Origin: Candidatus Saccharimonadia bacterium
GTDB taxonomy: Bacteria; Patescibacteriota; Saccharimonadia; UBA4664
NCBI GenBank assembly: GCA_035544015.1
Contig: DATKIP010000093.1
Location: 281,454-345,453 of the forward strand
DNA: 64,000 nt
Direction: 5' to 3'
Of this stretch, positions 4,708 through 59,973 are shown one piece after another. Positions within the stretch are counted from its first letter, which is position 1; each line of letters begins with the position of its first letter. Made by a program: the position numbers and the translations under genes. A model generated the notes under the pieces. That model did no database searches. It saw nothing but the letters and a program-made list of their open reading frames with translations, and had not been told where the DNA came from.

Positions 4708-5378
4708 GCCCGGCCTTTCACAAATCGATAATGCAAGTATACCTCGTCACCCTCAGCGCGATGATCCAGCAATTCGAGCTCGGGCACCTCATCGGGCGCA
4801 AATAACACCCCGTTAATCATAGTGGGCGTACCAAACGACGTCCCAAACAGCTTCGGCGCCACCGTCACGTACAGATCGTCCACGAGCCCCGCCGCCACCC
4901 ACGCGCCAAACAGCCGCGGTCCCGCCTCAAGCGCCCCAGCCCGCCAGCCCTCGGCCGCCATGCGATCGTGCAAAGCCGGCAAATCCACCTGCCCCGACCC
5001 CTGCCGCCACACCTCTACGCCCGCCGGCACCGAAGGCAGCTGCGCCTCCTCGGTCGTCGCCACGATCACCCGCAACACCGCGCCCTTGGGATCCACCTGC
5101 GCCAAGAGCGCCTCATCTGGATGCGCGCTCACCACCACATACACATACGGCCCCGCATGCTCATACCGCGCCAAAGCCGCCCCAAACTCCGGCGACCGCA
5201 AGCGGCCAAGGTGATCGTGGCTCATGGCCGTCAGCCGGCCGTGCACGAGCACATCGCACTGCGCCCGCAGGTCGAGCAGCTGAGCCAAATCCGCCGCCGA
5301 GCCGATCGGCCAATAGTCCGCACCCGGCCCCTGCACCTTGCCGTCAACGGTCATCACAAAATTGGCCGCGAGCTTCAC
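4704..5378 (-). CDS. RibD C-terminal domain / dihydrofolate-reductase-family protein
   Basis: The MTVDGKV start region and VAPKLFG / GLVDDL motifs are typical of the RibD_C (DHFR-like reductase) fold. Likely GTG start at 5378 overlaps the TGA stop of the yhhQ-like gene (GTGA). The ORF track extends to 5408. Confidence 0.55.
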   Translation of the reverse strand: MKLAANFVMTVDGKVQGPGADYWPIGSAADLAQLLDLRAQCDVLVHGRLTAMSHDHLGRLRSPEFGAALARYEHAGPYVYVVVSAHPDEALLAQVDPKGAVLRVIVATTEEAQLPSVPAGVEVWRQGSGQVDLPALHDRMAAEGWRAGALEAGPRLFGAWVAAGLVDDLYVTVAPKLFGTSFGTPTMINGVLFAPDEVPELELLDHRAEGDEVYLHYRFVKGRA

Positions 5379-6034
5379 GCAGTCTTGCTCTTGTCGCCGC
5401 GCAACCATGCCACACCGGCATACACCAGCGGCGTCTCAATCACCGACATCAAACATTTCAGCAGCCAGTAGGGGATACCAACTCCCAGCAAGAAGCTCAA
5501 ATTATCGCCCAGTCCCAAAGCCGGCACATAGAACGCCAAGGTCATAAAAATCGCGGTGTCAAAGAATTGCGACACTACATTGGAGATGTTATTGCGGAAC
5601 CACAAAGCTTTTTTGTGCATGCGCTCGCGCAATTTCGAGAACACCATCACATCAAGCAAACTCGCCAAGCCAAAGGCCACCAAACTCGCCGCCGCCATCC
5701 GAATCGACGTGCCAAATACCTTATCGTAGCTGGGCTCCATAGCCGCGAAACGCGTAGACGGGGGCAAATTTGTCACCGCCAGCGCATACACCATCAGGAG
5801 CGCAATCACGATCACTCCACACATTACCAAGCTGCGCGCCCGATCCCGGCCATACACCTCCACCATCACATCCACGGCCGAAAACATCAGCGGCACTACC
5901 AAAATAGCTACGCTGGCATTGAGGTGAAATCCGAAAATCGTCCCCAGCGGAACTATCTTAGCCCCCATCAGCTCGGAAACCACAATACACAGAATATACA
6001 GCGACACTACCAGATCAAGGCGATTAATCTTCAC
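5375..6034 (-). CDS. YhhQ/DUF165 (VUT) family transporter, queuosine-precursor-transporter-like
   Basis: 219-aa polytopic membrane protein with the conserved layout of YhhQ-family 7-deazapurine / vitamin uptake transporters (e.g. the FFDT and YVPALG segments). Confidence 0.55.
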   Translation of the reverse strand: MKINRLDLVVSLYILCIVVSELMGAKIVPLGTIFGFHLNASVAILVVPLMFSAVDVMVEVYGRDRARSLVMCGVIVIALLMVYALAVTNLPPSTRFAAMEPSYDKVFGTSIRMAAASLVAFGLASLLDVMVFSKLRERMHKKALWFRNNISNVVSQFFDTAIFMTLAFYVPALGLGDNLSFLLGVGIPYWLLKCLMSVIETPLVYAGVAWLRGDKSKTA

Positions 6035-6204
6035 GCGGTACTCCCGTTTACGGCTTAATTATCCGCCCAAAGCATACCCGCCCGCAGCCGTTTTAGCCAG
6101 CTTAAGACCCAAATCGCCAACCCAACCCTCGTTCTTACCTTGACAAAATACCCAATTAGCGGTAAAAATACTCCACGCGTTCCCACTACTGATCGGAGAC
6201 GAAC

Positions 6205-7137
6205 GTGAGTACCGTTTTGTCATCGCGCCTGCCGGGCGCGCAACGCCGGGCCGCCGCCAACTGCTTGGCGATGGACATCGCCCACGCAGCCGCCTTGCTG
6301 GAGCAGCTGGAAGCCGACGACGTCGGCGCCCACTACCAGCTCAGCGAAGTCGTGCCGGGATACTTGCGCGTGACCTGGGCTACGCTCCTGCAGGACCACG
6401 GCTACAACAAGGAATACCGCGCCGCCGTCGCGGCCTACCAGCACCGACGCAACTACGAGAAGACGGTCCCTGAGCTCACGGCCGTCATGTCCACCTGGGC
6501 CGATCCGAACGGCAGCCTGGCCGCGCGGTTCGAGGCCGGCATCGCGGCGCGCCGCATCTGGGAGGACGTCTACACCAAGACCCGGCTGCCCAACGAGTAC
6601 CTCGGTCGCCTCACCACCAAGTGCGGCTCCCGGCCCCCGTCGAAGCAGCTCCAGACAGTCCTCGACGCCTACGTGCAGCAGCTGACGACCGCCGCCCAGA
6701 CCACCGGCACCGCCGCCGACAACCTGGCGGCGGCGGCCTTCGCGAAGCTTCGCCAGCTCCGGGACCGCGTCGACACGCGCTACCCCGGATTGCAGCCGCC
6801 GAACCACTGCTTCCACCTCGGCCTCACCTGGCCGACAATCCCCGACTGGAAGGAGCTCGTCAGCCGCTTCGTCAACGCACCGACGACCTGGGACCTCAAC
6901 CTGCCACCCGAGGTGGTTCCCGCCGAGTTCGTCTACGACGCCGCCCAAGTGCTCCACTCCGGCTCCGGAGCCACCCGAACCGATGCCCAGGGCCTCCAGG
7001 CCTACCTCAACGCCAGCCCCGGGCTGCGGGCGCTCACTCCCGACCTGCTGCAAACCGCCGTCGCGTGGTTCGCCGCCAACGGCGAGCGGCTCCCGATCGA
7101 CCGCTGGCTGACGGCCAGCACTGAGTCCACCCCCTAA
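6205..7137 (+). CDS. hypothetical protein (atypically high-GC gene)
   Basis: GTG start preceded by GGAGA. The 310-aa protein has normal complexity, whereas the fully overlapping antisense ORF 6220..7212 is Gly/Arg low-complexity, so the + frame is preferred. No recognisable domain. Confidence 0.45.
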   Translation: MSTVLSSRLPGAQRRAAANCLAMDIAHAAALLEQLEADDVGAHYQLSEVVPGYLRVTWATLLQDHGYNKEYRAAVAAYQHRRNYEKTVPELTAVMSTWADPNGSLAARFEAGIAARRIWEDVYTKTRLPNEYLGRLTTKCGSRPPSKQLQTVLDAYVQQLTTAAQTTGTAADNLAAAAFAKLRQLRDRVDTRYPGLQPPNHCFHLGLTWPTIPDWKELVSRFVNAPTTWDLNLPPEVVPAEFVYDAAQVLHSGSGATRTDAQGLQAYLNASPGLRALTPDLLQTAVAWFAANGERLPIDRWLTASTESTP

Positions 7138-7193
7138 CCGCCGGCCACCGCGCCGGCCCAACCCGCACCATCTGCACGGCCAACAGCCGAGCA

Positions 7194-7226
7194 GAGGCCC
7201 CCGACGGATCATTCGTCGGGGGCCTC
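7194..7226. terminator. perfect 13-bp-stem palindromic hairpin (bidirectional terminator candidate)
   Basis: GAGGCCCCCGACG-gatcatt-CGTCGGGGGCCTC, sitting between the convergent genes 6205..7137 (+) and 7232..8473 (-). Confidence 0.6.
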
Positions 7227-7231
7227 GCTAT

Positions 7232-8473
7232 TTAATCGCCTGTCGTGCAGCTGCCCACGCCCACCGCCTCCGTCCTACCGCTTGCCATAGCCAAAAACGG
7301 CTCCACCACTTTGGTGGTCAACGCGTAGCCCACATCGTTCGAATACAGCGATCGCGCCAGCACCATACCTGCTACCGAACCGTCCGGCAGCACCACCGGC
7401 CCGCCCGAATTACCCGGCCGTATCGCCGCCTCGAGCGAGTACATCGGCCGCTCCACCCGACCCCGACCATAAATGTCGTACCCCGTAATCACCCCCCTAT
7501 CCAAAATACCCGCCGACTCCCCCGTAAACGGCCCGCCGTCTGGATACCCAAGCACCACCGCCTTGGCCCCTGCCGCCGACTCATCCGGCGCCAGCCGCAA
7601 CGGTTTACCCGCCACATGTTCCACCCGCAACAGCGCAATATCATTACCCGGATCAAACGCCACCACCGTCGCCGCATGAATCCCCGTGCGATCCACCGCA
7701 AACGGCCGCTTGATGCCCGCCACCACGTGCGCCGCCGTCAATACTTCATCCGGACCCGCCACAAAACCGCCGCCGCTCACCAAACCGCCGCAGCCCAGTC
7801 CCTCCACGCGCACCGTCGAGTCACCATCGAGCGCCACCACTTTGTCTACCAATGCCTGCTCAGCCGTATCCACCGATTTCGCCGGCGCCGGCTCCAAGCC
7901 CACAAACACCTGCGGGATGCCGTTCGGATCAATGAACGATTGCAGCCGCGTCACCCCCAACGGAGGCGGCGGCGCCACCCGCGTCAAAAACCGCAGCATC
8001 AGCGAATGCTGCAACCCCGTCGCAAACCATCCAAACGATGTCGTGAGCACCATGCCCGAAACCAACCACACCAAAATCAAGCTCGTGGCCCCGCTCAGCA
8101 CCGCCCCCATGATCGCACCTCCCCGGTGCAAGCCAGCCAGCCGTGGCGTTGCCCGCCGAAGGTCCAGCCCCAGGCGATCGCCCGCAAAACCCATAAACAA
8201 CCCCACACCCAGCACCACCCCAAACGCAATCGCCATGCGGCCCAGTCGATTAGCCGTCATAGTAACCGCAATCGGCACCAGCTGCATACCCAGAAACACC
8301 CCCAGGAAAAAGCCAATATCGGCCAACACCTGCCGCGTGAAACCCAGCCGGCGACCGTGAATCACATTCACGAGCACCAGCGCCACCACTAAAAGATCGA
8401 TGCCAAAGGCAACGATAATGCCGGATATACTCAAAAACGGCGCGAAAGCAACAAAATAAGTGCCAATCGACAT
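7232..8473 (-). CDS. CvpA-family membrane domain fused to trypsin-like serine protease (MarP-like)
   Basis: N-terminal four hydrophobic helices (CvpA-like). C-terminal chymotrypsin-fold motifs TAAHVV, DIALL and GNSGGP. The architecture matches the mycobacterial MarP (Rv3671c) family. Confidence 0.75.
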   Translation of the reverse strand: MSIGTYFVAFAPFLSISGIIVAFGIDLLVVALVLVNVIHGRRLGFTRQVLADIGFFLGVFLGMQLVPIAVTMTANRLGRMAIAFGVVLGVGLFMGFAGDRLGLDLRRATPRLAGLHRGGAIMGAVLSGATSLILVWLVSGMVLTTSFGWFATGLQHSLMLRFLTRVAPPPPLGVTRLQSFIDPNGIPQVFVGLEPAPAKSVDTAEQALVDKVVALDGDSTVRVEGLGCGGLVSGGGFVAGPDEVLTAAHVVAGIKRPFAVDRTGIHAATVVAFDPGNDIALLRVEHVAGKPLRLAPDESAAGAKAVVLGYPDGGPFTGESAGILDRGVITGYDIYGRGRVERPMYSLEAAIRPGNSGGPVVLPDGSVAGMVLARSLYSNDVGYALTTKVVEPFLAMASGRTEAVGVGSCTTGD

Positions 8474-11965: not shown

Positions 11966-12388
11966 CTAGAACTCGCGGTTATCCTCTGAGATTTCAACCA
12001 AAATACCGTCTGGATCAGCCACAAAGAAATAACGAGGGCCAGTTCGGCCTTGAGTAACCTTGACATCAGAGGCGACCACAGCCTTAGCAGCCAAGTCCTC
12101 CCGCGCTGCCTCGATTGAATCTACCTTCAATCCAAAATGTTTTGTGCCAATGACGGGAAGATCCGTTGAGGTCGCATGTATGAAATCCGGAGCAGACAGG
12201 GGAGCAGCATAACAAAACAATTCTAAGATAAACTCACCATTACGAAGGTGCGTTATGCTCAAAGTCTTGTCCTCGGCCTCCCAAAGATGAACTTGCTCGA
12301 ACTCAAGTAATTTATAAAAATCTACAGATTTTTCTCTGTTTGTAACACTGATGGCAACGTGCGTGGATTGAATACATGTAAATATCAT
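11966..12388 (-). CDS. VOC family protein (glyoxalase/bleomycin-resistance/dioxygenase fold)
   Basis: 140 aa. HVAISV ... HFGLKVDSIEAA ... FFVADPDGILVEI, a paired beta-alpha-beta-beta-beta module pattern typical of VOC proteins. Low-GC gene. Confidence 0.6.
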   Translation of the reverse strand: MIFTCIQSTHVAISVTNREKSVDFYKLLEFEQVHLWEAEDKTLSITHLRNGEFILELFCYAAPLSAPDFIHATSTDLPVIGTKHFGLKVDSIEAAREDLAAKAVVASDVKVTQGRTGPRYFFVADPDGILVEISEDNREF

Positions 12389-12435
12389 ACCAAACGCAAT
12401 AACGACCCAACCGGGTCGTTATACGCAATGATTCT

Positions 12436-12521
12436 TGGTACCGCTGGTCGGACTCGAACCGACATGACCTTGCGATCGAGGGATTTTGAGTCCCTTGTGT
12501 CTACCATTCCACCACAGCGGC
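12436..12521 (-). tRNA. tRNA-Leu (anticodon CAA)
   Basis: The reverse complement reads GCCGCTG-TG-GTGGAATGGTAGACAC-AAGGGACTCAAAATCCCT-long variable arm-GTCGGTTCGAGTCCGAC-CAGCGGT-A-CCA. It has the T-loop GGTTCGAGTCC, a 7-bp acceptor stem, an anticodon loop CTCAAAA, a long extra arm (type II tRNA) and an encoded CCA. Confidence 0.8.
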
Positions 12522-51511: not shown

Positions 51512-52334
51512 GATGCCCTCCCGTCTCGCTGCCCGCCACCACCACCAAGCGACCCCGCACGTTCACCACATCCACTGGCGCGCCATAAAGCTCCGTCAGC
51601 CGCTCGGTCGTCAGCACCTCCTTAGGCGTCCCGATGGCCCAGCGGCCGTTCACCAAATACAACACCCGGTCCACCGACGCCAAAATCGGGTTGATCTCGT
51701 GCGTCACAAACAGCACCGCCGTATTCGCCTCGCGCCGCCGTCGATCAATCAGCGCCGTCACTGCCTGCTGATGCGACAGGTCCAGCGACAACAGCGGCTC
51801 GTCGCACAGCAGCACCTGCGGATCGCCAACGAGCGCCTGCGCAATCCGCAATCGCTGCTGCTCGCCACCAGAAAGCCGCCCCATCGGCCCATCCGCAAAA
51901 TGCTCAGCGCCCACCTCGGCTAGAGCCCGGTTCACCAGCTCATCCTCGCGCGCACTCCGCCTCCAGCCAAACCGGCCGCCATCGAGCCCAAACCGCACAA
52001 TGTCACGCCCCCGTACCGGCAAATCCGCGTCAAAACTGCGTTGCTGCGGCACATACCCGCACAACCCCCGGCTCCGTACCGGCATCTCGCCGGCCACCTC
52101 TACGCGTCCCTTCGTGAGCGGCACCAGACCCAGCAACACCTTGAGCAAGCTAGTCTTGCCCGTGCCGTTAGGACCCAGCACCGCCACAAATTCACCCGGC
52201 TCCACTTGCAAGTCGAGCCCCCCCCACAACCGCCGTCCGCCCAGAGTAAGCGTTGCGCCAGATAGCCGAATTGCCGAGGAATTAGAAGGATTAGTTGCCA
52301 CTGAGTCCAGTATACAATGCCTTTGCCTGATCAA
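51504..52334 (-). CDS. metal ABC transporter ATP-binding protein (ZnuC-like)
   Basis: Walker A GPNGTGKTS, signature LSGGEQQR, Walker B LLCDEP. The true start may be downstream of the track start, since it overlaps the SBP gene by 44 nt. Confidence 0.8.
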   Translation of the reverse strand: MIRQRHCILDSVATNPSNSSAIRLSGATLTLGGRRLWGGLDLQVEPGEFVAVLGPNGTGKTSLLKVLLGLVPLTKGRVEVAGEMPVRSRGLCGYVPQQRSFDADLPVRGRDIVRFGLDGGRFGWRRSAREDELVNRALAEVGAEHFADGPMGRLSGGEQQRLRIAQALVGDPQVLLCDEPLLSLDLSHQQAVTALIDRRRREANTAVLFVTHEINPILASVDRVLYLVNGRWAIGTPKEVLTTERLTELYGAPVDVVNVRGRLVVVAGSETGGHHD

Positions 52335-53196
52335 GTTGCCAGGTCTGAAAATCCTTGCCCGCCGGCAATGTTTCGGTCACGCCAATCACCGACACCCCAT
52401 TCTTTTGAGCCAAAGCCTTCACCCGTTCGGTTACCGGGCTCGTAGCTTGCGAGTTGTAAAGCAGCACCTTAATGGCATGGCCGGTAATGAGCGACTCCAT
52501 CCCCGCCGTGTCAGCCGGGCTCGGATCATTGCCTTCTTCAATCGCCTGCGAAAACCCAGCCGGCGTTTTAACGCTCAGACCGGCACTGAGCAGCAAATAC
52601 GCCGGAACCGGCTCAGTATAGGCCACCCCAACCCCCGCATAATCCGCCTTAATCCGACCAACCTCATCGTGCAGCGACCGCAGACTAATCATAAACGCCG
52701 CCAGATTCGTCTCATAGACACTCCGATGTGCATCGTCTCGCCCCGCCAATGCCTGCTCAATCGCCTGCGCTACCACCTCAACTTTCGCGGTGTCGTACCA
52801 CAAATGCGGATTAGCTCCCTCCGCCGTATTGGTCACCGCGGCCGCCTTCACCACCACTCGGTGGTCGTTGCGCGAGCCCGCCACCAGTTTATCCATGAAG
52901 TCGTCGTACCCCACGCCATTGACGATCACCACATCGGCCGAGCCCACCACCGCCGCATTCTGCGCACTCGATTCGTACAAATGTGGATCAGCCTGCGGGT
53001 CAGAAATAATCGAAGTTACAACCACCTGCGAACCACCAATTTGCCGCGCAATATCACCCCAAAAATTTTCCGCCGCCACCACCTTGAGTTTCCCCGAACC
53101 CGTCACCCCACTACGATCACGCACCGCCAGCGCCGCCAAAAGCACGCCGCCCACTACTACCGCTACCAAAATTACATAGACAGATTTTTTATTCAT
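52291..53196 (-). CDS. metal ABC transporter substrate-binding protein (ZnuA/TroA family)
   Basis: Signal peptide / lipobox-like N-terminus. Cluster-9 SBP layout with His/Asp/Glu metal ligands (HLYESS, DPHLW). Confidence 0.75.
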   Translation of the reverse strand: MNKKSVYVILVAVVVGGVLLAALAVRDRSGVTGSGKLKVVAAENFWGDIARQIGGSQVVVTSIISDPQADPHLYESSAQNAAVVGSADVVIVNGVGYDDFMDKLVAGSRNDHRVVVKAAAVTNTAEGANPHLWYDTAKVEVVAQAIEQALAGRDDAHRSVYETNLAAFMISLRSLHDEVGRIKADYAGVGVAYTEPVPAYLLLSAGLSVKTPAGFSQAIEEGNDPSPADTAGMESLITGHAIKVLLYNSQATSPVTERVKALAQKNGVSVIGVTETLPAGKDFQTWQLDQAKALYTGLSGN

Positions 53197-53235
53197 GCGC
53201 TCAGCATAGCGAAAACCGGTATCTGTTGCAAAATA

Positions 53236-53249
53236 ATTGCATATGCAAT
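53236..53249. promoter_or_regulatory. perfect 14-bp palindrome ATTGCATATGCAAT, candidate Fur-family (Zur) operator
   Basis: The only AT-rich perfect palindrome in the 65-bp divergent intergenic region between the metal-uptake operon and the Fur-family regulator gene. Confidence 0.5.
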
Positions 53250-53261
53250 AACATCTAGGCT

Positions 53262-53723
53262 ATGAACCAACAACCAGCCCCCGACGCCGCCTTCCTGGCC
53301 CACCTCAAAAGCGCCGGCGAGCGCGTCACCACCCCCCGGCTCACCATCTTTCGCCTGCTCGCGCGGCACAGCCCGCTGCCCATGCGCAAGCTCGCCGACC
53401 GCGCCGCCGGCGACGGCGTCGACAGCGTAACCGTCTATCGCACCATTGCGCTCTTTACGCGGCTGGGCTTCGTACGCGAAATCGGCATGGGCAGGCACCG
53501 CCTGCTAGAACTCAGCGACGACTTCGGCGAACACCACCATCACTTTTGGTGCAGCCAGTGCGGCGCCGTCACCGATTTCGACAATCCCGAACTCGAACAA
53601 GCCATTCATGCCGCTTCCCAAGCCCTCGGGCTTACCGTGCAAGCTCACCAGCTCGAAATTACCGGCCTCTGCGCCGCCTGCAGCCGACTAGCTCAATCCT
53701 CGCGAAACGCCCACAACTTATAG
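53262..53723 (+). CDS. Fur family transcriptional regulator (Zur-like)
   Basis: Winged-helix N-terminus, HHHFWCSQCG and CAAC metal-binding motifs. Divergent from the metal ABC importer. Confidence 0.8.
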   Translation: MNQQPAPDAAFLAHLKSAGERVTTPRLTIFRLLARHSPLPMRKLADRAAGDGVDSVTVYRTIALFTRLGFVREIGMGRHRLLELSDDFGEHHHHFWCSQCGAVTDFDNPELEQAIHAASQALGLTVQAHQLEITGLCAACSRLAQSSRNAHNL

Positions 53724-54208
53724 AGCGTAAAATTCCAGATCGCGCTGCCCACCACGCCCATACCAAACGCTACCGTCTTGATCACAAATTCCCGCGTGAG
53801 CACACCGGGCACTAAGCCCACCAGCCCGAGCGCCCGAGCAGCGTCAAACCAAAAACTGCTAAATGTCAGCCCCGCCGCCGTTGCCGAAAACACAAACACC
53901 AGGCCCGGCTGAATCGCCCAAATCGACACCAGCGTCGCGGTCAAAAAGCGCACCCCCGACTTACCGATCCCCGCTTTACTGCGAAACACCCACCGCCGGT
54001 TCCAATAAAAACTATTAATCATCGCCACGCTGCCGGAGAAAAACTTCACCATAAACACCCGGTCGAGCGGCACATTGAGTAATTTCGTCACCGCCAGGTA
54101 GAGGGTGTAGTCGATGAGCGTATTCGAAATACCCACCAACCCAAATTTGGCGCTTTGTTTGACGAGGTTGGGCCCAGACTTGACAACCGGCTTCTTGGTA
54201 CCTGACAT
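53693..54208 (-). CDS. GtrA family protein (polyprenol-phosphate-sugar flippase-like small membrane protein)
   Basis: 171 aa, four TM helices. N-terminal FGLVGISNTLIDYTLYLAVTKLL is typical of GtrA. The 3' end overlaps the Fur-family gene convergently by 31 nt. Confidence 0.65.
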   Translation of the reverse strand: MSGTKKPVVKSGPNLVKQSAKFGLVGISNTLIDYTLYLAVTKLLNVPLDRVFMVKFFSGSVAMINSFYWNRRWVFRSKAGIGKSGVRFLTATLVSIWAIQPGLVFVFSATAAGLTFSSFWFDAARALGLVGLVPGVLTREFVIKTVAFGMGVVGSAIWNFTLYKLWAFRED

Positions 54209-54328
54209 AACCCAAGCATAACCACTTTAAACCGAAAAATCCACCAAAAATGGAGTTAGCGACCTCGCCCGCGTATAATAACCTCCGCGGGAGAACCCCC
54301 GCTCTCAAACCCACCAAGGACGGACCGA

Positions 54329-55048
54329 ATGGATCCAGCTCCAACCGCCCTCAAGCCCATCGAAGACTTGCCCCGCATCCTCGGCTTCGAGGAAGACGAA
54401 ACCCTGCGGCACGTCCGCGAACAAACCGTAGCCGCCATCAGGACCGGACGGACGGCCACTATCCACGAAGCCTGGAGGAGGTATTTCGAAGCTTCGGACC
54501 CTCGGGTGGAGGCCCCAGACGCCCATGAGACCAACCGCGCCCGCACCGGTCGCATCATCGCTCAGGCACTCATGTACCGCGAAGCCGGCGAACCCGTCGA
54601 ATACCTGATCCAGCTCATGTACGCCGACTACGCGGCCAGCAGCAGAGGCTGGGACGATGTCCAGCCCGAGCTCGACGCCGCACTCGAAGACCGGACAGCC
54701 GAATACCACCAGGCACGTGGAAAGTTCCATGCAGCCTTCGCGGGAGCCACCGACGATCCCGCCGTCTGGTACGAATCCGCCATCAGACCCTACACCGAAG
54801 CCGAGCACGCATCCGACCCCAGTGATCCCCGCGTCCAAGGCCTCTTGAGTCTCCGCCTGGCAGAGTGCTATCTAGCCTTGCTCGAGCTCGGCCAGGACAG
54901 CGCCGAGACCCTCCAGCACGGCATCTTCAGTTCCCTCCAAACCGCGGCCCAATACCTGGGCCCAGAACCCGAGGTTGCCAAAGTAACCAGCCTCATGGAT
55001 GAACTCAGCCCGCAACCATGGTGGCAATCCCTCGTGGCGGGCTCGTAG
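54329..55048 (+). CDS. hypothetical protein
   Basis: 239-aa acidic helical ORF upstream of the NHEJ locus. Terminator hairpin downstream. Confidence 0.4.
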   Translation: MDPAPTALKPIEDLPRILGFEEDETLRHVREQTVAAIRTGRTATIHEAWRRYFEASDPRVEAPDAHETNRARTGRIIAQALMYREAGEPVEYLIQLMYADYAASSRGWDDVQPELDAALEDRTAEYHQARGKFHAAFAGATDDPAVWYESAIRPYTEAEHASDPSDPRVQGLLSLRLAECYLALLELGQDSAETLQHGIFSSLQTAAQYLGPEPEVAKVTSLMDELSPQPWWQSLVAGS

Positions 55049-55062
55049 GCCCACCACTTAAG

Positions 55063-55113
55063 GCCCCGGCAGGAGAGCCCCCGGACTCTCGTGCCGGGGC
55101 TCACTGCTTTTTG
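55063..55113 (+). terminator. rho-independent terminator
   Basis: GCCCCGGCA...TGCCGGGGC stem (9 bp) followed by TCACTGCTTTTTG. Confidence 0.7.
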
Positions 55114-55187
55114 ATGCCTTGTGCGATATCCCTAATGCATCGCCGCCCCATTTTCGCTAAGCTGTATCCAACAACAAGGACCAAGCC

Positions 55188-55958
55188 ATGCGCGCCATCT
55201 GGACCGGCTCTATCTCATTTGGACTCATCAATATTCCCGTCAAATTATACTCGGCCGCCGAGTCCCGCGACGGCATCGACCTACGCATGCTCCACAAACA
55301 AGATGAAGCCCCCATCCGCTACGCCAAATTCTGCACCAAAGAAAATATCGAGGTTCCGTACGAAGACATCGTCAAAGCCTACGAATATGATGATGGCCGG
55401 TTTGTAGTGCTCAGCGATGAGGATTTCAGCGCCGCCGAGGGTGAAAAAACCGCCACCGTCGATATCGAAGAATTCACCAGCGAAGCTCAAATCGACGTCC
55501 GCTATCTCGAGCGCCCCTACTACCTCGAGCCCTCCAAGGGCGGCGAAAAAGCCTACGCCCTCCTGCGCGAATCGCTCGCCCAAGCCGGCAAAATCGCCGT
55601 GGCCCGCTTCGTGCTTCGCCAACGCGAACATCTAGCCGCCATCAAACCAGTCGGGAAGATGCTGGTGCTTAATCAAATGCGTTTCCCCACCGACCTGCGT
55701 ACCCCCGGCGGCCTCAAGCTGCCGCCAAAGGACCTCGCGGGACCCGCCGAGCTCAAAATGGCCGGCACGCTCATCGACCAGCTCACCAAGCCCTTCATCG
55801 CCGAAGACTTCCACGACACCTACACCGAAGAGCTCGAGGAGCGCATCGAAGCCAAGGTCAAACACCAACCTGCTCCCAAGATTAAAGCTGCCGACACCGC
55901 ACCCGTCAAAGACCTCATGGCCGCACTCAAAGCCAGCCTCGAAGAGGCCAAAAAATAA
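55188..55958 (+). CDS. ku: non-homologous end joining protein Ku
   Basis: MRAIWTGSISFGLINIPVKLYSA N-terminus and a beta-barrel core of bacterial Ku. 256 aa with a Lys-rich tail. Confidence 0.9.
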   Translation: MRAIWTGSISFGLINIPVKLYSAAESRDGIDLRMLHKQDEAPIRYAKFCTKENIEVPYEDIVKAYEYDDGRFVVLSDEDFSAAEGEKTATVDIEEFTSEAQIDVRYLERPYYLEPSKGGEKAYALLRESLAQAGKIAVARFVLRQREHLAAIKPVGKMLVLNQMRFPTDLRTPGGLKLPPKDLAGPAELKMAGTLIDQLTKPFIAEDFHDTYTEELEERIEAKVKHQPAPKIKAADTAPVKDLMAALKASLEEAKK

Positions 55959-56030
55959 GATTTACTTTCGGTTTTAGTTCGGTATAATACCTTGGCACAA
56001 CCGTTATACTGATAATCAAGGATACTCACC

Positions 56031-56456
56031 ATGCCCACAGTAGATTTCACCCTCCAAGACATTCGAACCTCTCTGTTACCAGAGATTCAAACTATTATCG
56101 ATGAATCAATCGACACACGATTCAAGCAGTTTGAACAATCATACGAATCCGACATAGCCGCCATCCAGCAAGATTTCCTTGCCATCTATACTAGGTTCGA
56201 TGGAATCGACGCCAGGTTCGACGGTGTGGATGCCAGACTCGATGGTATAGACGCCAGATTTGACGGCGTGGACGCCAGACTCGACGGAATGGACTCCCGA
56301 CTCGACGGAATAGATGCGCGATTCGACCATCTCGAAACCGACCTCAAGGACGTCAAAAAAGACGTCCGCTATATCAAGCACCATATGACCGACCTCGACA
56401 AGCTCGCCGGTCAGCACTCGCGCGACATCATGAAGCTCCGCGCCCGCGCCGCCTAA
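56031..56456 (+). CDS. small coiled-coil protein with seven tandem heptad repeats (A-R-F/L-D-G-I/V-D)
   Basis: 141-aa ORF between ku and ligD on the same strand, with a 72-nt gap before and 17 nt after. The centre is RFDGIDA RFDGVDA RLDGIDA RFDGVDA RLDGMDS RLDGIDA RFDHLET. Confidence 0.5.
   Translation: MPTVDFTLQDIRTSLLPEIQTIIDESIDTRFKQFEQSYESDIAAIQQDFLAIYTRFDGIDARFDGVDARLDGIDARFDGVDARLDGMDSRLDGIDARFDHLETDLKDVKKDVRYIKHHMTDLDKLAGQHSRDIMKLRARAA
56196..56335 (+). repeat. in-frame tandem 21-nt repeat array (about 7 units) inside CDS 56031..56456
   Basis: Units such as GCCAGGTTCGACGGTGTGGAT, GCCAGACTCGATGGTATAGAC and GCCAGATTTGACGGCGTGGAC differ mainly at synonymous positions. Confidence 0.7.
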
Positions 56457-56473
56457 GCCAGGAGCCACCCGGC

Positions 56474-58939
56474 ATGCCCCTCAAGGATTACCACGCCAAG
56501 CGCAAATTCGACCAAACCCCCGAGCCCACCGGGGGATCAGGGGAGGGACCGCTACGATTTGTAGTCCAAAAACACCACGCCACCGCCCTGCATTACGATT
56601 TTCGGCTCGAAATGGGCGGCGTGCTCAAATCTTGGGCCGTCCCCAAAGGACCATCACTCAACCCCCAAGACAAGCGCCTCGCCATGATGACCGAAGACCA
56701 TCCCTACGACTACCGCACCTTCGAGGGCGTCATTCCCGAGGGCAACTACGGCGCCGGTCCCGTCATCGTCTGGGACGAGGGCACCTATGAGCCGCTCTTT
56801 GCCACCGGCGACCGCGACGCCGACGACAAACTTGCCCGAGCCGGCGTCCACAAAGAGCACCTCACCTTCATCCTGCACGGCCAAAAACTAAACGGCGAAT
56901 TCGCGCTCATCAAAATGCACGGCAACGCCGATGAAAACGCCTGGCTAATCGTCAAGGCCCACAAAGACAAATTTGTCTCCGCCAGCGACATCACGGCCCA
57001 AAACCGCTCAGTCGTCACAAACCGCACTATCGAAGAGACCGCCGCCGGCAAACCCATCACCAAACTCCACCTTGGCGAACTAACCACGGCGCCCAAAGCG
57101 CCCCTGCCAAACACCTTCGAGCCCATGCTCGCCACCCTCGCCGAGCATCCATTCGACGACCCCGCTTGGATCTACGAGATCAAATGGGACGGCTACCGCA
57201 TTATGGCCGAGCTGGGAGCCGGCGGCGTCACGCTGCACACGCGCGGCGGCCAGGATTATACCCAGCGCTTCAAAATCATCGCCGACGAATTGCACCACCT
57301 ACGCGTCCCGGCGCTCATCGACGGTGAAATCACTGTGGTCGACCCAGACGGCCGCTCCAGCTTCCAGGCGCTCCAAAATTACCTGCGCACGGGCCAGGGC
57401 CGGCTCCTTTATTACGCCTTTGACCTGCTCCACCTCGCCGGACACGACCTCACAAATTTACCTTTGGCAAGCCGCAAAGCCCTGCTGCGCCGAATACTGC
57501 CCCCGGGCCCGCATCTGCGCTACAGCGACCATATTGCCGAGCAAGGCACGGCGATGCTGGCGCACATCAAAGAGCAGGGGATGGAAGGCATAATCGCCAA
57601 ACGCGCCGACAGCCTCTACCGCTTCGGCCACCGCAGCCGCGATTGGCTCAAGCTCAAAACCAAACACCGCCAAGAAGCCGTCATCGTGGGCTATACCGCC
57701 CCGCGCGCTGGCCGCCACCATTTTGGCGCGCTGGTGCTCGGCATCTACGACCACCAGCGGCTCGTCTACGCCGGCCACACCGGCTCGGGCTTCACCGACG
57801 CATCGCTGCAGAGCCTCCACGAACAGCTCCAGCCGCTCGTCACCACCCAGTGCCCCATCGACCCGGCGCCCCAAACCAACGAACCCGCCACCTGGGTGCG
57901 CCCCAAACTCGTTGCCGAAGTTGAATTTACTGAATGGACCGAAGACGGCTCCATGCGCCACCCCATTTTTGGAGGCCTGCGCGAAGACAAGCCCGCCGCC
58001 GAGGTGCACAGAGAACAAGCCATCAACGAGGAACCCACCGTGACCAACGAAACCACACTCAAGCTCAACGGACACACCGTCCCCATCACCCATCGCGACA
58101 AACTGTATTGGCCCGAGGACGGCATCACCAAAGGTCAGCTCATTGAATACTACCGCGCGATCGCCCCCACCATATTGCCCTACCTCACAGACCGCCCCGA
58201 GTCGCTCAACCGCTTCCCGCACGGCATCCACGGCGACAGCTTTTACCAAAAAGACCTCGAAGACCACCCCGCCTGGGCCAAAACCACCCTGATTCATTCC
58301 GAATCCGCCAACAAAGATATCAATTATTTACTGTGCCAAAATGAGGCCACGCTCATCTACATGGCCAACCTCGGCTGCATCGACCTCAACCCCTGGAATT
58401 CGCGTTTGAAGCACCTCGACAACCCCGACTGGTGCGTCATCGACCTCGACCCCGAGGACATCGGCTTCGAAGCCGTCATCGAAACCGCTAGAGCCGTAAA
58501 ATCTGTGCTTGATAAAGCCAAAATTCCCTGCTATCCCAAAACTTCCGGCGCCACCGGCATTCACATCTACATTCCCATGGGCGCAAAGTACCCCTATGAA
58601 CAGGTCAAAGATTTCGCGCACATCATCGCACGGCTCGTAAACGCACAAGTACCCAAACTCACCAGCGTCGAGCGCAACCCAGCCAAACGCCAGCACAAAG
58701 TCTACCTCGATTACCTCCAAAACCGCCACGGCCAAACGCTGGCCGCTCCCTACTCGGTTCGGCCCCGACCCGGCGCACCCGTCTCTACACCCCTGCGCTG
58801 GGACGAGGTTAAGCCCGGCCTCCAGCCCACCGACCACACCATCCACACCACCACCAAGCGCCTCGAAGCCGTTGGCGACCTGTGGGCACCAGTGCTGGGC
58901 CCCGGCATTGATCTCGCCGCAGCCTTGGGGAGACTCTAA
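56474..58939 (+). CDS. ligD: multidomain ATP-dependent DNA ligase LigD (phosphoesterase, ligase, polymerase/primase)
   Basis: The N-terminal 3'-phosphoesterase module (HYDFRLE ... KSWAVPKGPS), a ligase domain with the adenylation motif YEIKWDGYR, and a C-terminal LigD-Pol/primase domain (DLDP). 821 aa. Confidence 0.9.
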   Translation: MPLKDYHAKRKFDQTPEPTGGSGEGPLRFVVQKHHATALHYDFRLEMGGVLKSWAVPKGPSLNPQDKRLAMMTEDHPYDYRTFEGVIPEGNYGAGPVIVWDEGTYEPLFATGDRDADDKLARAGVHKEHLTFILHGQKLNGEFALIKMHGNADENAWLIVKAHKDKFVSASDITAQNRSVVTNRTIEETAAGKPITKLHLGELTTAPKAPLPNTFEPMLATLAEHPFDDPAWIYEIKWDGYRIMAELGAGGVTLHTRGGQDYTQRFKIIADELHHLRVPALIDGEITVVDPDGRSSFQALQNYLRTGQGRLLYYAFDLLHLAGHDLTNLPLASRKALLRRILPPGPHLRYSDHIAEQGTAMLAHIKEQGMEGIIAKRADSLYRFGHRSRDWLKLKTKHRQEAVIVGYTAPRAGRHHFGALVLGIYDHQRLVYAGHTGSGFTDASLQSLHEQLQPLVTTQCPIDPAPQTNEPATWVRPKLVAEVEFTEWTEDGSMRHPIFGGLREDKPAAEVHREQAINEEPTVTNETTLKLNGHTVPITHRDKLYWPEDGITKGQLIEYYRAIAPTILPYLTDRPESLNRFPHGIHGDSFYQKDLEDHPAWAKTTLIHSESANKDINYLLCQNEATLIYMANLGCIDLNPWNSRLKHLDNPDWCVIDLDPEDIGFEAVIETARAVKSVLDKAKIPCYPKTSGATGIHIYIPMGAKYPYEQVKDFAHIIARLVNAQVPKLTSVERNPAKRQHKVYLDYLQNRHGQTLAAPYSVRPRPGAPVSTPLRWDEVKPGLQPTDHTIHTTTKRLEAVGDLWAPVLGPGIDLAAALGRL

Positions 58940-58948
58940 CCACACCCC

Positions 58949-59215
58949 ATGGAAGCATACCGCACCCAAATCGACGCCCTCGACCGCCAGATTATCGCCC
59001 TGCTTGGCCAACGCTTCGCTGTCACAAAGCAGGTGGGGGAGTACAAACAAATCCATCACCTGCCCATACTCGATGCCGACCGCGAAACAGCCCTCCAGGA
59101 GCGCCTGCGAACCCTCGCCATAGACGCCCACCTCGACCCGGAATTATGCCTTGTCCTCTACGAAATCATCCTCAGGCACTCCCGAACCCAACAAGCCTTG
59201 CCAAAACATATCTAA
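58949..59215 (+). CDS. chorismate mutase (AroQ class, small)
   Basis: 88 aa. IDALDRQIIALLGQRFAVTKQVGEYK ... matches the AroQ helix-1 pattern (R...D..I..LL.eR). Confidence 0.7.
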   Translation: MEAYRTQIDALDRQIIALLGQRFAVTKQVGEYKQIHHLPILDADRETALQERLRTLAIDAHLDPELCLVLYEIILRHSRTQQALPKHI

Positions 59216-59343
59216 GTCACTCGCCGGCGGACTCATGCTGGTACTCAGCTCGGCCAAGCCGAACCCAAAGACGAGCCGGCACTATAGCAGCAAAACGCCC
59301 GGCTTAACAAAAGCACGGGCGTTTTGAACGAAAGATACGGGAG

Positions 59344-59973
59344 CTAGAAGTAGGTCAGGTTAGCATCTACCGTCGTGTCGTCAAGCCGGAAGTTAAGACC
59401 ACTGGCGTGATTCTTCACTTGAGCCCTCACAAAGTAGGTACACACAGCCTCCCGAGTGTTGGGCGAGCAGCGCAAGTAAGCCGTACGCGTGAAAGCGTTG
59501 CTTTCCCAGGCGTTCGGATCCACCTGGCTGTTGGACCACGCAAACGAGTCAGGCTCGGGCGCGCTTGGCTGGCCCTCGGCCCCATTAATCAGCACCCGAC
59601 CCTCGCACCACTGATTGTTCGCCGCCGCCGAGTTGGTACACGTCACCTCGCCGTCCACCTTCACTACCGCCAACGCCGACTTACCGCGCGGCACCGTTAC
59701 CGTAAACGAACCACACTGCAAATTCACCCAATCCGTCGTGGTGTAAGCAGTCGGCGTGTTATTCGTATACGCCCGGCGCTGAACCGCCGCATTCGTAGCC
59801 GAGAAGAACCGACAGTCCGGATTGGCCGCCGCCACCGCCGCTGCGTCCAACTTCTTAAACCCATCTTGCGCACTCTGCGCCTGCGTTTCCGCCAGCACCG
59901 GCCCGCCTCCGAGCACCAACAGGCCGGCCAGGCCAACACCCGCCACCAGCTTCCTTTTAAGCGTGAATTTCAT
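59344..59973 (-). CDS. secreted hypothetical protein (Cys-containing, Thr/Asn-rich)
   Basis: Start taken at MKFTLKRKLVAGVGLAGLLVL (signal peptide). Six Cys in the mature part. No domain recognised. Confidence 0.45.
   Translation of the reverse strand: MKFTLKRKLVAGVGLAGLLVLGGGPVLAETQAQSAQDGFKKLDAAAVAAANPDCRFFSATNAAVQRRAYTNNTPTAYTTTDWVNLQCGSFTVTVPRGKSALAVVKVDGEVTCTNSAAANNQWCEGRVLINGAEGQPSAPEPDSFAWSNSQVDPNAWESNAFTRTAYLRCSPNTREAVCTYFVRAQVKNHASGLNFRLDDTTVDANLTYF

Follow-up and report, generated by a model that had tools for sequence, protein, structure and literature searches.

A stretch of 64,000 nucleotides (nt) from a Candidatus Saccharimonadia bacterium (GenBank assembly GCA_035544015.1, contig DATKIP010000093.1, positions 281,454 to 345,453; hereafter the window, in which coordinates are given unless another contig is named) was examined in the present study. 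It carries a locus for non-homologous end joining (NHEJ) in which three genes, ku, a gene that we call X, and ligD, lie on the plus strand in the same direction, with gaps of 72 nt between ku and X and 17 nt between X and ligD. The open reading frame (ORF) map confirms the coordinates, sizes, shared direction and spacing given in an initial annotation of this DNA. The ku gene (55188..55958, +) encodes a DNA-end-binding protein of 256 amino acids (aa) that matches Pfam Ku (PF02735; E 2e-49, 168.5 bits against a cut-off of 25) and is 100% identical to P0121, which bears the NCBI name 'Ku protein [Candidatus Saccharimonadia bacterium]'. Gene X (56031..56456, +) encodes an acidic, all-helical predicted coiled-coil protein of 141 aa (isoelectric point (pI) 4.7, net charge about -10), an assignment based on orthologues, the ratio of nonsynonymous to synonymous substitution rates (dN/dS), an AlphaFold2 model and a gene call on a second contig. 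The ligD gene (56474..58939, +) encodes 821 aa with four Pfam models, all above their cut-offs: a phosphoesterase (PE) domain at residues 32-147 (56567-56914, +; LigD_N 2.3e-43), ligase and OB domains at residues 217-506 (57122-57991, +; DNA_ligase_A_M 4.4e-28, DNA_ligase_A_C 1.6e-30) and a primase-polymerase (Prim-Pol) domain at residues 552-804 (58127-58885, +; LigD_Prim-Pol 1.3e-90). Because Pfam places the domains in that sequence, the order is phosphoesterase-ligase-polymerase (PE-Lig-Pol), as the initial annotation had read it, which is an ordinary order and is given for Agrobacterium LigD in the abstract of PMC1920237. The second contig, L047 (Logan SRR8863102), is public; over 10.8 kb its sequence is identical to that of the window, and the 141-aa gene is called there too (L047 5844-6269). 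The locus thus has both hallmarks of a bacterial Ku/LigD NHEJ system, a protein with the Ku beta-barrel domain and a LigD that joins PE, ATP-dependent ligase and Prim-Pol domains in one polypeptide; end joining by the encoded pair is putative, being read from domain content.

Bacterial NHEJ is taught as a two-protein system. In its canonical two-component form, as in Mycobacterium, Pseudomonas and Agrobacterium, Ku and a PE-Lig-Pol LigD are encoded by adjacent, co-directional genes, as here, an arrangement classed as 'operonic NHEJ' (PMC7719229). The window differs from these canonical loci by the addition of a conserved gene with its own promoter-like block between ku and ligD. In full-text literature searches, no third gene was found described for ku-ligD operons, the pathway being consistently called two-component, and no paper on NHEJ loci in Saccharimonadia was returned. 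The present data document complete NHEJ loci in the reduced Saccharimonadia genomes of the candidate phyla radiation, where the GTDB species set holds only three relatives of this Ku (L001, L002 and L003), all from metagenome-assembled genomes (MAGs) of Saccharimonadia or Saccharibacteria.

Gene X and its protein family

The product of X begins with a conserved N-terminal region (residues 1-53, 56031..56189, +), which reads MPTVDFTLxDI ... SIDxRFxxFExxYxxDxxAIQxDFL in the family alignments. This is followed by an array of seven units of about A-R-[FL]-D-G-[IVM]-D (residues 54-102, 56190..56336, +), delimited by repeat and register analysis, and by a conserved C-terminal cap, LxxQHSxDIMxLRA (residues 125-138, 56403..56444, +), defined on an alignment of 23 family members. 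The initial annotation had described seven perfect heptads as the core of the protein. The array is indeed present (TRFDGID, ARFDGVD, ARLDGID, ARFDGVD, ARLDGMD, SRLDGID and ARFDHLE, in that order), but only three of the seven units fit A-R-[FL]-D-G-[IV]-D exactly, three others carrying conservative changes (T or S for A, M for I/V) and the last being degenerate; moreover, it is the least conserved part of the protein, and it is the caps that define the family.

At the DNA level, Tandem Repeats Finder reports a 21-nt period in X (6.3 copies, 74% matches) and a 42-nt period at 56196-56327 (2.7 copies, 81% matches). Between repeat units, 56 differences were counted at third codon positions, 31 at first and none at second positions, and the ratio of nonsynonymous to synonymous differences per site (pN/pS) among them is 0.17 with a pS of 0.77, which together indicate an old array selected at the protein level and not one created by recent DNA slippage. 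Comparison of orthologues gave a pS of 0.62-0.88 (saturated), a pN of 0.25-0.34 and a dN/dS of about 0.1-0.3. X is therefore a genuine protein-coding gene under purifying selection. The GC content of third codon positions in its N-terminal region is 0.47, as against 0.70-0.75 in ku and ligD.

A protein search with the whole of X returned 983 matches at E<=1e-3, all of which aligned through the heptads and had unrelated ends. True orthologues were missed at first because the repeats pushed them out of the top of the match list. The genomic contexts of closer Ku homologues revealed the first orthologue, a 121-aa gene in L053/L054 (Ku 76% identical), the product of which matches X outside the repeats (VDFTLEDIR..., SIDARFKVFE..., AAIQEDFLAVYARFDGVD and HHSRDIMELRA). 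This orthologue overturned the view of X as a promiscuous repeat protein inserted in one lineage. When the non-repeat N-terminus was used as a profile, only four proteins, of 73-107 aa, were returned, all of them ligD-linked orthologues, and a HMMER search of 1.84 billion representative sequences added about 20 end-to-end members of 65-129 aa with both caps and very different stalks. The distant members inspected (10) are all singletons on short metagenome contigs that carry no taxonomy. As a side observation, X and the L053 orthologue are missing from a word-indexed protein search, and an exact-sequence look-up gave X as 'not on record' despite the gene call on L047; absence from such sequence indexes does not show that a gene is absent.

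Family members range from 65 to 141 aa, with the ligD-linked orthologues outside the window at 73-121 aa. The N-terminal cap follows M-[PA]-x-V-D-F-[TS]-L-x-[DE]-[IVL], which the window protein matches with MPTVDFTLQDI, and the C-terminal cap follows [RK]-[LIV]-[VL]-x-x-H-S-x-[DE]-I-M-x-L-[RK]-A, with its central H-S-x-[DE]-I-x-x-L-x-A ending 3-5 residues from the C-terminus; the window protein has QHSRDIMKLRARAA there. Across the 23 aligned members M1, L8, S130, I133, L136 and A138 are invariant, and F6 and H129 nearly so. The heptad stalk spans 0-7 units, from none in a 73-aa allele to seven in the window, four of which occur in no orthologue. Two near-identical loci (L058 646-867 and L060 506-763; Ku 100% identical over 128 aa, X synonymous divergence dS 0.20) carry X alleles of 73 and 85 aa, respectively, and as the 73-aa L058 allele retains no heptads, stalk length evidently changes quickly. 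All orthologues are acidic (pI 4.6-5.3). Based on these data, we consider it very likely that X is the founding member of a so far undescribed capped coiled-coil family, and that this family is genetically coupled to ligD within one clade of Saccharimonadia.

No match above threshold was found for X in Pfam, NCBIfam or PADLOC. The best Pfam scores were sub-threshold (DUF1664, 25.0 bits against a cut-off of 34.6; DUF7310, 24.7 bits against 40), the gathering thresholds of DUF7310, DUF1664, XhlA and DUF2730 were not reached, and no DNA-binding domain was matched in the family libraries. With at least three tandem heptads, the window protein (seven units) also belongs to an informal, widespread group of small ARxDGxD heptad proteins, which DUF7310, DUF1664, DUF2730 and XhlA cover in part, with scores below threshold. 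The orthologues of X have 0-5 units, so that this feature is not conserved across its family. Other proteins of this group have the heptad consensus and a size similar to that of X, but differ in lacking its caps, in some cases having transmembrane segments, and in lying in unrelated contexts; alignment showed no common ends, and so no homology to X outside the repeats. A scan of metagenome contigs with X, which served as a negative control, yielded 36 loci, all repeat-only relatives and none with ku or ligD. Among the repeat-only proteins, the 209-aa P0007 (L010 5001-5630) is inserted in an operon of xanthine-dehydrogenase type, where its neighbours are the molybdopterin subunit and the FAD subunit; the gaps are 114 and 8 nt, a geometry much like that of X. 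Another, the 138-aa P0010 (L005-L008, about 5001-7869), lies 118 nt upstream of a co-directional PcrA/UvrD-type helicase gene on at least 24 contigs; its position beside a DNA-repair helicase is possibly a coincidence.

Linkage to ligD and the block upstream of X

Genes flanking the X orthologues were identified by tblastn. X lies directly upstream of ligD and in the same direction in the window and in nine of the nine other retrieved loci that bear an orthologue. The arrangement is ku, 72 nt, X, 18 nt, ligD in L055; ku, 84 nt, X, 1 nt, ligD in L056; X, 1 nt, ligD in L057; and ku, 102 nt, X, 25 nt, ligD in L058/L059 and L060. In L053/L054, X lies 23 nt upstream of ligD and ku is 2.5 kb away from ligD, with three opposite-strand genes between ku and X-ligD (L053 5773-7705, also in L054) that encode a DoxX-like protein of 187 aa and two hypothetical proteins of 123 and 184 aa, both ending VPA[DN]W. 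In this Saccharimonadia clade, insertions seem to recur at the ku-ligD junction. Counting the near-identical L058-L060 once, X is linked to ligD in five lineages (window/L047; L055; L056/L057; L058-L060; L053/L054), the Ku proteins of which are 73-84% identical. The initial annotation had asked whether the order ku-X-ligD, with a homologue of X, is found again in related genomes; it is, with orthologues upstream of ligD in four lineages besides that of the window. Outside ku..ligD, the flanks of the X-bearing loci of the window, L053 and L056 have no substantial homology in common, which shows that the adjacency of X and ligD has survived neighbourhood shuffling.

A conserved promoter-like block precedes X (55961..56012, +), recognised from a sigma-70-like match and from its conservation. 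It opens 3 nt past the ku stop codon with TTTACT-N16-TATAAT (55961-55988), the best sigma-70-like match in 54900-59400 (10/12 positions), and further comprises a T-rich spacer, TTCGG-N6-TTCGG, and another conserved box, CGTTATACT (56001-56009). The block, TTTCGGTTTTTGTTCGGTAT[AT]AT ... CGTTATACT, is kept upstream of X in all X-bearing lineages, including L053 with its different upstream neighbour, although synonymous sites between orthologues are saturated, and among 60 loci the motif was found at the X upstream position only. An inverted repeat, GGTATAA/TTATACT, was considered as an RNA hairpin and rejected, as its arms do not co-vary in orthologues and it reads better as two -10-like boxes. 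Elsewhere in the window there is a single near-match to the block (12384-12406, -, with 2 mismatches), beside a tRNA gene (12439-12521, -), which is probably another promoter with a T-rich spacer.

Shine-Dalgarno-like motifs are readable 8 nt before the ATG of X (AAGGA, 56018..56022, +) and within the 17-nt gap before ligD (AGGAG, 56461..56465, +). A scan of 54900-59400 found no terminator-like site in either intergenic gap, ku-X or X-ligD. For ku itself, a -10-like box, TAAGCT (55158..55163, +), is a tentative call by resemblance to the consensus; the aligned ku upstream regions of six loci have GCTA[AT][AG][AC]T in common about 25 nt before the ATG, and no motif beyond generic -10-like boxes is common to the ku and X upstream regions. 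From these elements, X and ligD appear to form a unit under a promoter of its own, into which transcription from ku may also read through, and the X-ligD gaps, which go down to 1 nt, would allow translational coupling. Hence the single ku-X-ligD operon of the initial annotation stands in part: the genes are co-directional and read-through is possible, but since X tracks ligD and carries its own promoter-like block, an X-ligD unit nested behind ku is the better description.

Trees of Ku and LigD place all X-bearing loci in one clade together with two loci that lack X, L048 and L002, and place the X-less L001 and L003 as outgroups. In genomes without X, ligD starts 0-10 nt after ku (2 nt in L048). 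The window and its closest relative, L048, have an upstream gene in common, so that the two loci are orthologous; L048 nonetheless has no X. The simplest history is one gain followed by two losses, with the star-like trees leaving room for spread by recombination. Given these four absences, X is an optional accessory and not a core component, which qualifies the initial idea of a third NHEJ component, borne out as far as conservation in relatives is concerned. Two of the X-less loci deserve mention in passing: the related MAG L001 carries ku twice in tandem, with 76% identity between the copies and ligD directly behind them (L001 4254-5872), and on the metagenome contig L050 (1309-3205) ligD is called as two ORFs of 81 and 571 aa, reflecting a frameshift or an assembly error.

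Predicted structure and possible roles of X

AlphaFold2 modelled the single X chain as one continuous helix over residues 8-140, with predicted local distance difference test scores (pLDDT) of 92.9 and 90.9 in two runs, one using an alignment of repeat relatives and the other an alignment of true family members without the L053 orthologue. At a rise of 1.5 Å per residue, this 133-residue helix would be about 20 nm long. From about residue 31 to 136 the a and d positions form an uninterrupted hydrophobic series, in a register with F/L at a, I/V/M at d, R at g and D at e, and the conserved His129 sits on a core d position. Judged by sequence, this register fits a parallel coiled coil with salt bridges between g and e'. 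With F/L at a and I/V at d, the core resembles those of designed GCN4 variants that form tetramers and trimers (Harbury rules), and most of the weak PDB matches of X are trimers. A PDB sequence search and a Foldseek search with the model returned generic coiled coils or nothing, a single helix being uninformative for fold search.

The linkage to ligD, the conserved caps and the predicted rod shape lead us to favour, tentatively, a direct role of X in NHEJ as a self-associating accessory or adaptor linked to LigD. In such a mechanism, X would be expressed with ligD from the block upstream of X, possibly also by read-through from ku, and its product would self-associate into a parallel, acidic coiled-coil rod of about 20 nm in the window genome. 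Through its conserved end motifs the rod would bind LigD, and possibly Ku, and would either keep at least two LigD molecules together at the site of a break or modulate how they reach the ends. In a variant, docking of LigD and/or Ku on the end motifs would tether several ligases, or two DNA ends, to one another; that X is specifically an end-bridging factor strikes us as unlikely. A number of observations weigh against a direct role. Within the clade, L048 (Ku 83% identical) and L002 (78%) lack X, as do both outgroups, so that NHEJ evidently works without it, and every retrieved X-ligD context belongs to one clade. Residues of LigD and Ku specific to X-bearing genomes are no commoner than in arbitrary control splits, giving no signal of co-evolution, and heptad-only look-alikes occur in unrelated contexts, none of 43 such loci having ku or ligD. 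Finally, the expression, self-association and partner binding of X and its effect on end joining are putative, and the model, being of a single chain, is silent on oligomeric state.

The patchy presence of X, with two in-clade absences and no visible compensating change in Ku or LigD, would also be expected if X were a passenger without a part in end joining, a generic small coiled coil (for example a stress or envelope protein) drawn from the ARxDGxD pool, which came to lie between ku and ligD in the ancestor of the clade and was kept because it provides or shares the ligD promoter. The spread of heptad-only relatives over many unrelated places, including the xanthine-dehydrogenase-type operon, and the generic nature of the sub-threshold Pfam matches fit this explanation, which we nevertheless judge not very probable, as X adjoins ligD in five lineages despite shuffled flanks and a displaced ku, its family-specific caps are under purifying selection, and among the contexts retrieved no cap-bearing member was seen in any other setting. 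That X comes from a phage or mobile element, or else is a spurious ORF generated by the 21-nt tandem repeat, is essentially excluded. The repeat-driven first searches, the three relatives in which ku abuts ligD, the low GC content (0.43) of the N-terminal third of X and matches at E of about 1e-10 to two PHROG families of unknown function (5553 and 12015) pointed that way. However, the orthologues have conserved non-repeat ends and a dN/dS well below 1. Two scans of 2.9 million viral contigs found no relative of X, tblastn against phage genomes gave about 30% identity over coiled-coil segments only, and against plasmids no match, and no inverted or direct terminal repeats were found to bound the gene. 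Absence of the ORF from all relatives, or a clear match to an unrelated mobile or phage gene, had been named at the outset as grounds for abandoning X; the ORF proved to be conserved and no convincing match of either kind emerged.

It is also conceivable, if doubtful, that X is a regulator, either as a protein that restrains LigD or Ku until damage occurs, in the manner of an acidic inhibitor or DNA-mimic-like rod, or in cis, where the ORF and its upstream block would give ligD a regulated promoter and translational coupling of its own, separate from ku. The acidity of all orthologues suits the first version. The two -10-like boxes and TTCGG direct repeats upstream of X, which suggest regulated transcription, the X-ligD gaps short enough to permit coupling, and the placement of ligD 0-10 nt after ku wherever X is absent suit the second. 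Yet a purely cis role would not keep the cap protein sequence at a dN/dS of 0.1-0.3, X has no matched DNA-binding domain, and the acidic heptads that would form the mimic surface are dispensable, as the 73-aa allele has none.

A direct accessory role invites comparison with the eukaryotic factors XRCC4, XLF and PAXX, in which a homo-oligomerising coiled-coil stalk is tied to the NHEJ ligase; for X, the tie is one of genetic linkage only. Those proteins have an N-terminal beta-sandwich head in addition to the stalk, whereas X is predicted by AlphaFold2 to be a single helix with no head, and it has no Pfam match to the XRCC4, XLF or PAXX families. The likeness is one of analogy and not homology, with binding of the ligase or Ku by X putative. 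Carried further, the analogy would make X the first dedicated third component of bacterial NHEJ, a homo-oligomeric adaptor and head-less XRCC4/XLF analogue that arose independently in Saccharimonadia, a proposal that we regard as improbable at present. In mycobacteria, UvrD1 is linked to Ku and is a proposed helper of NHEJ. A mycobacterial Sir2-like protein, which is not encoded at ku-ligD, has been proposed as a further accessory factor (PMC3102665). Both are enzymes encoded outside the ku-ligD locus, in contrast to X, which is a non-enzymatic, predicted helical rod encoded inside it. Whether additional factors act in the synapsis of bacterial NHEJ is stated as open in a 2026 structural paper (PMC12784962).

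X offers a concrete, clonable candidate for a third factor, and a natural comparison is at hand between related genomes that have it and those that lack it. Binding of LigD or Ku by X would mean that accessory scaffolds evolved in bacterial NHEJ as they have in eukaryotes, and would account for the way in which some lineages tune end joining. Should it bind neither, X would remain a clean case of a conserved small gene hidden by repeat-dominated similarity searches.

Neighbouring genes and composition of the window

Upstream of the NHEJ locus, 52000-54210 holds a zinc-uptake cluster (ZnuA, an ABC ATPase and an ABC-3 permease), as well as a GtrA-like membrane protein and a divergent Fur-family regulator. 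No family match was obtained for the 239-aa gene that immediately precedes ku (54329-55048). Between it and ku lies a GC-rich hairpin followed by a T-run (55064-55112; CCCCGGCA ... TGCCGGGG), which looks like a terminator that would shield ku from upstream transcription; the terminator scan did not flag it because its loop is about 20 nt. Across the whole window (1-64000), every 4-kb bin has a GC skew of -0.17 to -0.30 and an AT skew of +0.03 to +0.21, a skew that is uniform, unusually strong, independent of gene orientation and free of any switch point.

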